From: Octopus vulgaris
Taxonomy: Eukaryota
Reading direction: 5' to 3'
NCBI GenBank assembly: GCA_951406725.2
Contig: OX597830.1
Location: 6,820,001 to 6,884,000 of the forward strand
DNA length: 64,000 nucleotides
Below are positions 3,071 to 38,928 of this stretch, piece by piece. Positions within the stretch are counted from its first letter, which is position 1. The number at the start of each line of letters is the position of its first letter. The notes below the pieces were generated by a model. The model did not search any database. It had not been told where the DNA came from and was given only the letters and a program-made list of their open reading frames with translations. The position numbers were made by a program, and so were the translations under genes.

Positions 3071-3561
3071 CGATGGGCTTCTTTCAGTTTCTGTCTGCGA
3101 AATCCATTCACATGGCTTTGGTTGACTCCAGTAGAAGACACTTACTTGCCCAAGGTGCCATGCAGTGGGAAATAGCATGTAGTTGTAAAACAAGATTTTA
3201 ACCACGCAGCCACGTCTGCGCCAATATGCAAAAAATTAAAAGTATGTGTGTTTGCATAGTCAAAAGTGAAGGTGAATGTATCATACGCCAAAAAAAAAAT
3301 GTATTTCTAGAAAGTGAAAGTACTTGAGTATTTGTGCGTTCCTGGAAAATGACGGAAGAGCAAGTGTATTCAATAACGATAGAAGAGCTATGTATTGCAA
3401 AGTATCATACTACCAGCATTTCACTCTGATAATGAGACCCAGATCTTAAAATCTCAATTTACATAGAAATACTATTTTTAGAAACGACATATAAATGTTC
3501 AATGAGGCAACAAGAAAGAAATATGTTTTAAATACTTCATATGCGTATATATATATATGTA

Positions 3562-3642
<81 letters not shown>

Positions 3643-3644
<2 letters not shown>

Positions 3645-6600
3645 GGAGCAACGCTACATCTTCACCCTACAAACTACCACCCCACACGGACTTAACACAG
3701 CCCCCTCCTCTTGAGATCCGTTTTTTTTTTTTTTTTTTTGTGGACACACCACCCCCACACCCCCACCCACCTACCTCCCACACGCACACACCCACCCACC
3801 TACCTCCCACACACACCCACCCACCTACCTCCCACACGCCTGTTCACACACACACATACGTAGACCCATCTACGTACATAAATTCACACATTTAATCACA
3901 CACACTTACAGACATACTAGCACACACTAACATACAAACCAACATGCACATACACATACACATACATACATACGCACACACATACATACTTACACACACA
4001 CACACACACACAGACATACATACACACATACACACACACATACATACGCACATACATACACACACACTCACACACACACACCGCACGTACATACTTCACA
4101 CACACACACATGCACACATACATGTAGGCACATACATACATACATACCCACACATGCACACCCTTACACTGAATGCACACACACATACACCTTTTTGCAT
4201 CCAGGCAGCCCCCCCCTCTTTTCTGCTTTCCGGTTTTGGCTGATGGATCCTCGGTTCCCGCGTAGCGGGGCGTTCGAGGGCCTTTGCGCTCGCGCGCCTT
4301 GGCGCGCGCTGGGGGCTTGGTCGGCCCCTTGGGCTTGCGTTGTACTGCTTGTGCGTTGTGTGCGTGAGCGCGCTTCGTGTGTGTGGGCTTGCTTCGGATG
4401 TGCGCATGCGTATGTATGCATACATACCCACACACTCGCATGCATCCCTACCCACATACATACACGCACACCTACTCACACACACACATACACACACACA
4501 CATACCTGCACACACACACACATACATACATACACACACATACCTACTTCAGACATACACACACACAGACACACACACACATACACACGCTCACACGCAT
4601 ACACACACACACATACACACGCACACGTACACACACACACACACACACACACCTACATACATACATTACACTTGTATACACACACACTTACATTCATACA
4701 CACACACACCTACACAGCCATACCCTCACTCTGACACACACATCTACCTACACACACACACAAACACACACAGACACACACCCATACATACATACATCTA
4801 CACACACACGCCTACACACATACATACACACATACATAAACACACACACATACACATACACACACATACGCACACACACATATACTTATACACATGCACA
4901 CACACACATACATACATACACCCATATACATACACACACACATACCTACATACTCCTATACGCACATACATACACACAGACATACACACTCACACAAACA
5001 TACACACACACATACTTACACACACACTCACCTGCACGCGCACACACATGCATGACAAACACCCATACACTCACACTCACATACGCACACACCAACATAA
5101 ACACGCACACGCACACACACACCTACACTCCCACACACATACACACGCACCTACATACATACACGCACGCATACACACGCATACACACATACATTACACA
5201 CGTACACACACACCTACATACACATGCATACACACACACACACACAAACATGCACGGACACACCCAGGCATACACACATACACCTATATACACACGCCCA
5301 CACACCTACATACACACACATATACACACGCCCACACACCTACATACACACACATACATACACACACATACACGGACACACCCATACATACTTACATACA
5401 TACACCTATACACACACGCCTACACACCTACATACACACACATGCATACACACACACATGTACGCACATACACACACATATACGCACATACATATATACC
5501 CACACACATGCACACACACACACATACGCACATGCATGCATGCATGCACACGCGCACACCTACACGCATACACACACACACACGCACGTACACATACATA
5601 CACACACGCATACATACACCCATACACATACATGCATCCTACACACACATACATACACACTCACACATACATACACACACACACACTCACTCACACACCT
5701 GTATGTACGCGCACACACATGCACATACACACACTTCCCCACACCCACACGTACATACATGCACACTCATACACATACACAAACACACACACACACACGG
5801 ACATACATCTATGCACACACATACATACACACATACTCACATACATTCATCGGACACACTGCCACCCAGACATACACACAGACACACTCACACATCCACA
5901 CACATACATACTTACGTGCATACTCGCAGGCGCGCGCACACACGCGCTTGCGCCGGTTCGCGCACGCATACTCGCCGCATGCACCTCGCTCTTGGACCCG
6001 ACGAGACCTGCCGCCCGTTCCTGGGACCGTCGCGTGTCGTTGGGTTTTCCCACGCCCGTCTCCGCGGGACCACTCTTCCATCTTCCCCTCAGCTGGAGTC
6101 CTTTTTTCTTAACCCCCCCCCTTTTTCGTTACACACACGCGCACACATATACACACATTGCTTAAATATATACATTACTCTTACACACATTCAATCTACT
6201 CGCCATTAATACCACCACGACACTGGACACACACACACACTACTACTCAACACACGCTGGCACGCTACATACGCCCCCACCCCTTCTCCCCCCTCCCTTC
6301 CTCCTTCCTTCTTTTTCTTACTACTGACCTTGTCTGCTAAGCTGACCACTGTCTCGCCCTACCTCACACGCCTACACACAGACGCACACACTAACACACA
6401 CATATATTTTTTTGTTTTTTTATCTCGCCTCACACACACACACATACACACACGCACACGCACACACTCACACATACACACACATCTGTTGCGTTACCAA
6501 GCTTGTCTCCACTCTTTTGCCTTTAAAAACCTACTTTGCTCTTGTTATCGTAAACATCCGCCTTTCACCATGTGCAACTCGTAAACACCAGTCGTTTTTT

Positions 6601-6778
6601 TTCTCTTTCCCTGTTGCCCGCTCTGGGATCTTTCTTTCCTCTCTCTTCCTTCTTTATGTTTCCGACGAAGAGCTCCGCTCGAAACGTCATACCTCCCTGC
6701 TTCCATTTCCTGAGCGCCTATTAATAATAATACTGTAATTGTTCCATTGTTGTTGTTTTTTTGTTTCCCGTTTGGATT

Positions 6779-6780
<2 letters not shown>
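3643..6780 (+). mobile_element. 5'-truncated Penelope-like element (Neptune-type): last 23 codons of the GIY-YIG ORF plus ~3-kb CA-rich 3' UTR ending in an HHR-bearing terminus
   Basis: 3643-3714 translates MEQRYIFTLQTTTPHGLNTAPSS*, matching the PLE GIY-YIG C-terminal motif E..(W/Y)IF.L.T..P.GLN. Minimal HHR at 6658-6692. Terminus GTTTGGATTAA followed by (AT)n, shared with copies at ~41905-41980, 45440-45660 (minus) and 50470-50690. Continuity of the whole 3.1 kb as one element is inferred. Confidence 0.65.
6658..6692 (+). ncRNA. minimal type I hammerhead ribozyme (PLE-associated, U4C core)
   Basis: gttt CCGACGA A GAGC-tcc-GCTC GAAAC GT C atac: core, 4-bp stem II, palindromic ACGT stem III (dimer-type) and short stem I. 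Confidence 0.6.
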
Positions 6781-6846
<66 letters not shown>

Positions 6847-6847
6847 G

Positions 6848-6886
<39 letters not shown>

Positions 6887-6990
6887 ATATACATAGACAT
6901 ATATATAAGGATAGATTTACACATACAAACACACACGCGTGCACACACACATGCACATACACACACATACACACACACATACACACACAT

Positions 6991-7037
<47 letters not shown>

Positions 7038-7080
7038 CAGATAGGTCTGTATATAGATAGATAAATAAGAAAACAGTAGC

Positions 7081-7157
<77 letters not shown>

Positions 7158-7158
7158 A

Positions 7159-7195
<37 letters not shown>

Positions 7196-36819: not shown

Positions 36820-37999
36820 CTATCCGTTTTCTTTAGGGGACCAAAAACGTAACAGAAATTTAGTCACATGTGGGCATGATCCGAAAAGTTCTGTCCTTGT
36901 ATTTAGACATGTGGTAGGGTCTAAGCTGCTTTTCCAGATAAGCCATCTCTCCATGTCGCATAAACCGCACCTTCCGCTGCCGTTAGTATAGGGCTTACAT
37001 CTGGCCAAAATCTTCCATTGTATGTTATAATCGACACCTTTATCTCTTAAAGACCAAATATGATTGGATAATTGTGTCGCTTTTCTTTTGTTCCAGTGCC
37101 TAAAGCTCAAAGTGTGGTTATTGAACCTGGCCTTGAAATTACCCTCTGTCAGGCCCACGTATTTCTTCGTCAAAAACGGTGTCTTTAGTGGTTATAGAGT
37201 TTACGGTAGCCTCATATATGATGGTCTTGGACATGCAAGCTCCATTTAGCGGGCACAATTCTTTATTCCTGCATGAACAGCTGTTTTCTTCTTGTGTTTT
37301 TTGTATGTTATGATTGATTATGTTTTTAAAATTGGTAGTTGAACTAAAACTAATTTTTAAATTGTGTCTATTGAAGAGTTTCCTATAAGCATGGTTAACT
37401 GGAAAATGTCTATCTATCAGTGCTAGGAAATATTTACCTATATTGAAGGCCACCTCGGGTGAGTAAGGGGGCGTAAACCAGATGACCTTCCTATTTCTAT
37501 TATTCCTTTTCTTTATTGTTGGGCTGGTGATAGGTGTATATTTTATTTTTTCGCTAAAACCACTATCTTTTAAAGCTTTATTATAAACTGGGGCAACGCT
37601 ATTGAAGATGTCCTCATTAGATGAGAGGCTAGAAATCCTCTTACTAATATTTTTAACTAAATTTTTGAATACTATAGGGGGATGGCATGAACCTACATTA
37701 ATATAACTTAGTCTATCATTGGGCTTCCTATAAGGCTTATAAATATTATTATTAAGATCTAAGGAAACGTCTAAGAAATTGACAACCGTCAGGTTAGTGT
37801 CTATAGTTATACTAAGTCCGAAGTGTTTCATTAACTGGATAATATCCTTCCTAAAACGATCTTGTGCTGGTCCATTTGTATTAGCTGTTAAGGCGAGGGC
37901 ATCATCTTTGTAGATGGTGAAATGTACGTTAGGGAATGTCTTACTGAAGGTATCTAGGAGAAAGAGTCCAATTAGATCACAGATGCCTGCCCCATCATA
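36820..37999 (-). pseudogene. Naiad RT C-terminal half + Zn-linker + GIY-YIG endonuclease (5'-truncated, one frameshift)
   Basis: Open frame from 37999: YDGAGICDLIG...IYKDDAL...VNFLDVSLDL..YRKPND..HPP..CSCRNKELCPLNGAC; frameshift near 37172; then KKYVGLTEGNFKARFNNH..CGLC..CPH. Confidence 0.92.
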
Positions 38000-38928
38000 A
38001 TAATATTTATAAGCCTTATAGGAAGCCCAATGATAGACTAAGTTATATTAATGTAGGTTCATGCCATCCCCCTATAGTATTCAAAAATTTAGTTAAAAAT
38101 ATTAGTAAGAGGATTTCTAGCCTCTCATCTAATGAGGACATCTTCAATAGCGTTGCCCCAGTTTATAATAAAGCTTTAAAAGATAGTGGTTTTAGCGAAA
38201 AAATAAAATATACACCTATCACCAGCCCAACAATAAAGAAAAGGAATAATAGAAATAGGAAGGTCATCTGGTTTACGCCCCCTTACTCACCCGAGGTGGC
38301 CTTCAATATAGGTAAATATTTCCTAGCACTGATAGATAGACATTTTCCAGTTAACCATGCTTATAGGAAACTCTTCAATAGACACAATTTAAAAATTAGT
38401 TTTAGTTCAACTACCAATTTTAAAAACATAATCAATCATAACATACAAAAAACACAAGAAGAAAACAGCTGTTCATGCAGGAATAAAGAATTGTGCCCGC
38501 TAAATGGAGCTTGCATGTCCAAGACCATCATATATGAGGCTACCGTAAACTCTATAACCACTAAAGACACCGTTTTGACGAAGAAATACGTGGGCCTGAC
38601 AGAGGGTAATTTCAAGGCCAGGTTCAATAACCACACTTTGAGCTTTAGGCACTGGAACAAAAGAAAAGCGACACAATTATCCAATCATATTTGGTCTTTA
38701 AGAGATAAAGGTGTCGATTATAACATACAATGGAAGATTTTGGCCAGATGTAAGCCCTATACTAACGGCAGCGGAAGGTGCGGTTTATGCGACATGGAGA
38801 GATGGCTTATCTGGAAAAGCAGCTTAGACCCTACCACATGTCTAAATACAAGGACAGAACTTTTCGGATCATGCCCACATGTGACTAAATTTCTGTTACG
38901 TTTTTGGTCCCCTAAAGAAAACGGATAG
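37997..38928 (+). CDS. Naiad thumb/linker + GIY-YIG endonuclease, open but 5'-truncated (no native start)
   Basis: ORF 38296-38928 with CxCx5CPLxGxC linker, IIYEA..YVGLT GIY-YIG motif, R..NH and CxxC..CPH tail; the frame extends upstream to the junction. Confidence 0.9.

Follow-up and report, generated by a model that had tools for sequence, protein, structure and literature searches.

The window analysed here is a 64,000-nt stretch of the Octopus vulgaris genome (assembly GCA_951406725.2, contig OX597830.1, positions 6,820,001 to 6,884,000, forward strand), to which all coordinates below refer. At 3644-6783, it holds a Penelope-like element (PLE) copy that is 5'-truncated and bounded by a (TATC)n microsatellite at its 5' junction (3562-3644, from the window sequence and family alignments) and a (TA)n microsatellite at its 3' junction (6784-6907). 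The flanks of the element are TA or TATC microsatellites, 5' truncation is present, and copies of the family can be aligned from 3644 onward. Together with a (GATA)n tract at 7053-7193 on the other side of the element, the (TATC)n tract makes up an inverted pair, which is probably due to chance.

Of the coding region, the window copy retains the last 22 codons and the stop codon (3646-3714, + strand); longer copies have both an RT and, at the C-terminus, a GIY-YIG in a single ORF, whose length among the full copies reaches 927 codons. The Pfam matches to these domains are weak (RVT_1 with E 0.0012, GIY-YIG with E 0.0009-0.008), both below the curated cut-offs, and the ORF protein has 1320 homologues, the best of which are 53-57% identical. 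The translations contain a C-X4-C-X2-C arrangement before the GIY-YIG as well as two Cys and two His in the endonuclease. Neptune/Nematis PLEs are described as having an RT plus C-terminal GIY-YIG, a CX2-5CxxC linker and CCHH endonuclease residues (Craig et al. 2021, PMC8557442); judged by its motifs (RT, GIY-YIG, linker), the element is a Neptune-like PLE, of a young family. As in the elements described in the sections of PMC8557442 drawn on here, there are partial tandems that form pLTRs, insertion into microsatellites and a hammerhead motif in the terminal repeat; a second, pLTR-like copy of the 3' end lies upstream in 5/20 loci (L032, L033, L034, L039 and L048). The window also holds a second PLE (36820-38928), whose RT-GIY-YIG frames at 37139-38047 (minus) and 37948-38928 (plus) form an inverted pair.

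Downstream of the stop codon, on the + strand, the 3' UTR begins with a T run, 25-29-nt repeats and a CA-rich tract (3715-4227, window sequence). Then follow the G/U-rich arm 1 (4228-4418), whose outer part, 4229-4273, is a confidently predicted helix and whose inner half is TG-repeat-derived; a CA-rich loop of ~1.48 kb with 5% G (4419-5902); the C-rich arm 2 (5903-6098), which pairs with arm 1; and a 3' portion (6099-6657) leading from the stem to a predicted minimal type I hammerhead-like motif (6658-6692).

In this motif, read from the sequence by eye, the core, helix II, a palindromic short helix III and helix I can be discerned; it deviates in that C replaces U at core position 4 and in one helix I mismatch. 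An Rfam scan of 3500-7000 returned no hammerhead at E up to 5, its 54 weak matches all being under the gathering scores. The ribozyme pattern (window 6662-6689) has 8311 exact matches in the genome. Metazoan PLEs carry minimal hammerhead ribozymes (Cervera and de la Pena 2014, PMC4209133), and the motif resembles both these and the animal retrozymes (bioRxiv 10.64898/2026.07.22.740005), as characterised in the portions of the two reports used for comparison, in its minimal type I form, in its helix III, which is short and palindromic, and in its position at the end of the element. The hammerheads of PLEs and retrozymes are short local folds, whereas the stem formed by the two arms is a separate structure, 560 nt upstream, that spans 1.9 kb. 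The PLE context which a sequence-only reading of this DNA had assigned to the two islands is borne out by the GIY-YIG ORF end upstream and the terminal hammerhead-like motif downstream. Forty loci sampled with the ribozyme pattern are mostly solo ends of 150-300 nt in TA repeats, from several related families, and many of these begin at one shared word, TGTGACC; one locus (L207, 3400-4630) has tandem ribozyme-bearing ends from different subfamilies with ~550 nt of TA repeat between them.

Pairing of the arms and their distribution among copies

The sequences reported by the sequence-only reading for 4253-4273 and 6052-6071 are correct, and the islands are, as it had described them, collinear imperfect reverse complements. 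Their pairing beats shuffled controls of equal dinucleotide composition. The depletion of A that it had ascribed to the islands stands on the + strand for arm 1 (4271-4400, 4 A in 130 nt); in arm 2 it is moderate only (23 A in 171 nt). For the + strand duplex of 4246-4425 with 5901-6080, the calculated energy is -189.0 kcal/mol, whereas the two arms after dinucleotide shuffling give -135.6 +/- 7.6 (z -7.0; 0/300 shuffles as low); the corresponding values for the - strand are -146.9 and -120.3 +/- 6.4 (z -4.2; 0/300). Local alignment of arm 1 with the reverse complement of arm 2 scored 91 compared with 45.5 +/- 6.1 after shuffling (0/500), and alignment of the arms in direct orientation was at chance level (131/500 shuffles). 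A general repeat search of the window listed microsatellites and missed the arms.

The window duplex comprises 147 pairs (91 G-C, 31 A-U and 25 G·U) and is built of short helices with pyrimidine-rich internal loops. According to the partition function of 4190-6130, 29 of the 147 pairs exceed a probability of 0.8, all of them in 4229-4273 x 6052-6097. Forcing the whole set of 147 pairs to form costs 19.5 kcal/mol relative to the minimum, since the inner arms have alternatives in local hairpins and in pairing with the CA loop. In young copies, the predicted helix that full-context folding supports is limited to the outer ~45 nt.

Exact 20-24-nt motifs placed along the element have 955 genome matches for the ribozyme (6681), 629 just 3' of arm 2 (6186), 556 for arm 2 (5951) and 300 for arm 1 (4386), distributed over many contigs. 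The arms occur in hundreds of copies, and the islands therefore belong to the family and not to this copy alone. Both arms are present in 52/60 young loci and in 37/40 further young loci; part of this young set was found by likeness to an arm and is thus biased against diverged arms, and 33 young loci are ORF-anchored. That the islands might be absent from other copies or be assembly errors, a possibility raised by the sequence-only reading, is contradicted by the presence of both arms in most young loci. The 13 of 104 loci without an arm represent truncations, deletions or extracted stretches that end early; hidden hyper-edited copies were considered as an explanation of armless loci and rejected in favour of truncation or deletion. 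Contigs from three of the four public runs compared (19 runs listed) cover arm 2. The motif counts at 6681, 6186, 5951 and 4386 give no sign of a pile-up of 5' truncations at the stem: the motif loss per 100 nt is ~0.085, 0.052 and 0.039 log units over the three intervals, with motif decay uncontrolled. Judged from these copies, the stem does not appear to block reverse transcription visibly.

A sister Neptune-like family, found by a distant protein query and 67% identical in amino-acid sequence to the arm-bearing family, has no arms in 20 loci, and its UTR is under 1 kb (roughly 0.85 kb). Its loci (L051-L070, e.g. G000:C18:50454500-50464000) are young, with frames of 767-1214 codons in 60 scored of 21028 candidates, a strongly G-poor sense strand and a ribozyme variant of their own. 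A degenerate ORF-end pattern aimed at sister families had 0 genome matches. Among the 39 of 79 metagenome relatives that have enough downstream DNA, none with a comparable long UTR stem was detected by a BLAST screen that barely detects the stem of the window; their hammerhead-like motif, where found, lies mostly 100-160 nt past the matched ORF end. With no such stem in the 20 sister-family loci and these 39 relatives, it follows that PLEs in general do not need it.

Covariation and compositional change along the subfamily ladder

Older copies were reached via the ribozyme pattern: among the 40 sampled loci, L207 is 89% identical to the young family in the ORF, 68% in arm 1 and 72% in arm 2. 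Arm 1 of L207, used as query, yielded 40 more older loci, a selection by arm 1 likeness that biases against diverged arms; 11 failed the anchors, 5 had arm 2 fully or partly deleted, and the 24 used were combined with 13 young ones into a set of 37 copies. In the older subfamilies, the ORF is 83-98% and the arms are 66-89% identical, both arms are kept, and the loops measure 0.7-1.6 kb. The subfamilies, all of one lineage, are arranged ladder-like in the ORF tree (D, C2, C1, I, A). Rooting by an outgroup was rejected as unreliable; the outgroup is too distant (branch 0.50) and put the root at the young A end. Terminal branches amount to about 0-0.7% in A and 0.9-4.4% in D, and from these lengths we infer that the D copies are the oldest and that the ladder runs from D towards A; CpG decay can bias the old consensuses, and alignments of the repeat regions are uncertain.

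Pairing has persisted across this series. Nine of the 37 copies, chosen across subfamilies and tested with 25 shuffles each, gave z of -7 to -11 on the + strand, and the arms of the oldest and youngest members pair better with their own partners (interaction -20.7 and -17.3 kcal/mol) than when swapped (+17.7 and +12.6 kcal/mol). Covariation, for which the sequence-only reading had proposed a check, is seen between the young and old ends of the ladder: when the A1 structure is tested in D, 15/18 double changes still pair, compared with 8.5 in the shuffle (P 0.0002), in a count that ignores the tree. The 18 double changes themselves exceed the 11.3 expected (p 0.004), and the pair is kept in 28/37 single changes (24.7 expected, P 0.02). 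In the reverse test, from D to A1, 14/21 double changes are paired (P 0.003). The nearer comparisons are not significant when taken alone (A1 to C2, P 0.056; A1 to C1, P 0.16; A2 to I, P 1.0), and the excess of double changes is not seen with the D or C2 structures. By thirds of the stem, paired double changes number 5/5 in the outer, 7/10 in the middle and 3/3 in the inner part; since they occur in all thirds, the evolutionary evidence extends over a larger part of the stem than the energy-based prediction.

At least four of the six consensus folds have 92 pairs in common; pairing is seen in 96.7% of the cells, and compensatory changes affect 14 of these core pairs as opposed to 1-6 with shifted partners, a comparison that is partly circular in that the structure comes from the same sequences. 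RNAalifold on the 37 copies returned 59 inter-arm pairs only. Within the young family, one site displays the full path U-A, U·G, C-G, C at 4356 being accompanied by G at 5970 in 7/7 copies; variants shared among young copies break pairs near the chance rate (9/32 vs 10.5 expected). The functional long-range stem suggested by the sequence-only reading is thus likely, as judged from arms that are shared, conserved and covarying and from the + strand asymmetry.

From D to A2, the number of G-C pairs changes from 65 via 71, 66, 89 and 93 to 98, while G·U pairs fall from 47 to 21, A-U pairs from 36 to 27 and the longest helix from 33 to 13 pairs; the stem energy remains steady, between -192 and -228. 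This replacement of A-U and G·U by G-C would have made the islands GC-rich. Along the lineage, T>C changes in the arms (60/462) outnumber C>T (20/417) and A>G (21/205) outnumber G>A (15/494), a GC trend that the decay of CpG in old copies could exaggerate; the ribozyme region has no such bias (T>C 39/482, C>T 38/381, A>G 3/218, G>A 8/153). Conversion of G·U to G-C (25/184) is commoner than the reverse (11/380, p 4e-6). Glycosylase-type G·T repair at CpG was considered and rejected, T>C at G·U pairs having no preference for a following G (10/78 before G, 15/106 otherwise).

Compared with the remainder of the element, the arms of 93-100 young copies have 2-6x as many rare variants of almost every kind, and rare T>C at G·U pairs is the highest class (12/1803). 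This excess could be due to a mutable fold-back intermediate, to unsampled sub-lineages or to GC-rich assembly error.

Taken together, we consider it probable that the arms, which covary across Neptune-like Penelope subfamilies, pair in the sense RNA as an imperfect ~150-bp stem, that this stem clamps off a length-variable CA tract of the 3-kb 3' UTR, and that the pairing has been kept by selection.

RNA editing and other explanations of the arms

Octopus has the strongest hyper-editing signal, and ADAR generally avoids a 5' G (both according to the parts of PMC5625713 used here). The sequence-only reading had seen in the islands a CA tract converted by fixed ADAR edits. This origin is not supported, in view of the composition of arm 1, which is TG-rich and TG-derived and has 11-13 A in every subfamily consensus, and of the spectrum of lineage changes, of which T>C is the commonest (60, as compared to 21 A>G). 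Nor does the strand-specific A>G excess among copies that it had anticipated materialise: in 93-100 young copies, rare A>G (7/2802) is not above T>C (32/8051, p 0.36), and rare non-CpG G>A in the arms amounts to 19/6263. Clusters of A>G in single copies are not seen, with at most one rare A>G per copy in the arms and at most two over all regions in 104 loci. In the public-run contigs, none of them catalogued as RNA and compared over arm 2, the sole A>G place, 5970, was dismissed because it varies between subfamilies in the genome itself; editing is not visible in contigs. In X1, a run guessed to be RNA, the variants in window 5880-6140 agree with those of the young A2 subfamily, which hints weakly at A2 being the expressed one. 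ADAR editing as the maker of the arms is mostly unsupported.

A subtler involvement of ADAR may be envisaged, in which low-level editing of germline RNA turns A-U into G·U upon reverse transcription and selection completes the step to G-C, or in which A and long helices are selected against, so that editing is evaded. Lineage A>G is indeed raised in the arms (21/205) relative to the region near the ribozyme (3/218, p 7e-5) and the ORF (9/755), 16 of the 21 changes fall at A-U pairs, and A-U to G·U (16/166) outweighs the reverse (5/181, p 0.012). Along the same lines, the A count of arm 2 decreases from 41 to 24 as the longest helix shortens, and rare A>G reaches 2.5 per thousand in the arms vs 0.71 elsewhere (p 0.009). 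However, the arms also have elevated rates of T>C (4.0 per thousand), G>A (3.0), G>T and T>G, the A count of arm 1 is flat, and A>G is an ordinary first step in A-U to G-C compensation. As to the neighbour context, 1/21 lineage A>G changes follows a 5' G, as ADAR preference would have it, but the depletion of 5' G at changed A (1/35 vs 20/197) falls short of significance (p 0.21). We regard this ratchet-like scheme as rather unlikely; ADAR may have played a minor part, given the lineage A>G excess in the arms and the A-U to G·U excess.

Alternatively, the arms could be a neutral, DNA-level inverted repeat, i.e. an old inversion of the CA tract whose likeness has been preserved through gene conversion, template switching or GC-biased repair and which is devoid of RNA function. 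Inverted copies are common in PLEs (in the passages of PMC8557442 used here), the oldest subfamily has a TG repeat as the inner half of arm 1, rare arm variants are raised on both strands, and the composition of the loop drifts slightly in the same direction (G from 3.6% to 5.0%). Yet pairing relies on G·U on the + strand: the oldest consensus, with its 47 G·U pairs, has -222 on the + and -121 on the - strand, and the many G·U pairs together with the much weaker - strand argue for RNA-level selection rather than DNA-level homogenisation. Moreover, the arms are ~60% identical only, yet pairing survives through transversion double changes, and the helices shorten over time rather than perfecting. 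We therefore hold a purely DNA-level repeat to be quite improbable. That simple repeats are complementary here by chance, or that the assembly is at fault, is largely refuted and most improbable, for although many registers allow TG to pair with CA/CG repeats (a partner shift by 2 gives 63-67% pairing), dinucleotide shuffles are beaten, the outer helix is non-repeat with 5/5 double changes paired, and the arms recur in hundreds of copies across many contigs, with arm 2 in contigs of most of the public runs compared.

Possible role of the stem and its meaning for PLEs

The covarying RNA stem could have arisen and been maintained in the following manner: A TG tract came to face a CA tract, supplemented by an outer helix of non-repeat sequence. 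In active elements, selection acting on the RNA would then have kept the pairing and exchanged A-U and G·U pairs for G-C, mostly by U>C. The loop varies twofold in length with the arms retained, and the ~1.07 kb outside the stem comes close in size to the UTR of the armless family; this suggests, if speculatively, that an expanding microsatellite is folded away by the stem. Its job would most likely be structural, ~1.9 kb of the UTR being folded away and ~1.07 kb left from the stop codon to the ribozyme. Speculatively, the stem may also serve as a protein-binding rod for a transposition particle or in RNA stability.

Paired-SINE inverted repeats, which are ADAR substrates, and the rod-like RNAs of viroids and HDV are likewise long imperfect duplexes of short helices and small internal loops. 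In contrast to paired SINEs, both arms lie here inside one element and co-evolve, with no editing signature seen; in contrast to the viroid and HDV rods, the structure resides in a linear retroelement UTR and not in a circular replicon. For inverted-repeat ADAR substrates, a link of dsRNA to editing is drawn in the consulted parts of PMC5625713. Compared with Neptune/Nematis PLEs, the element adds a 3' UTR of 3 kb that is rich in microsatellites and contains a long-range, covarying stem, and such a stem is not mentioned for them in the sections of PMC8557442 compared. In the literature considered, PAc Poseidon of Anolis (Frangieh et al. 2024, PMC11167929) is the one PLE whose RNA requirements have been mapped in vitro, and the format of that assay could be used here; PAc differs in belonging to another clade and in having its required RNA at the pLTR-ORF junction, with no 3' UTR stem reported in the portions of that article considered. 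A literature search by title and abstract start found no such stem; Repbase entries, supplements and subscription papers may describe the family. As far as the genomic copies tell, the stem is real, covarying and specific to this lineage, and the element that bears it is of a known kind.

The cis-acting RNA signals of PLEs beyond the hammerhead are barely mapped, and a kilobase-range stem provides a defined target for in vitro assay and probing. The subfamily ladder within one genome constitutes a rare dated series of compensatory evolution, through A-U, G·U and G-C, from a microsatellite start, and a few hundred copies make heritable ADAR marks in cephalopod transposons a testable question. 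One may go further and conjecture, as an unlikely scenario, that a TG/CA microsatellite pair evolved into an essential 150-bp RNA rod which, under extreme ADAR activity, lost adenosines and long helices and gained G-C at constant stability, partly via fixed A-to-I edits. If this were true, the dated genomic copies would be a direct record of RNA editing steering the evolution of a transposon.
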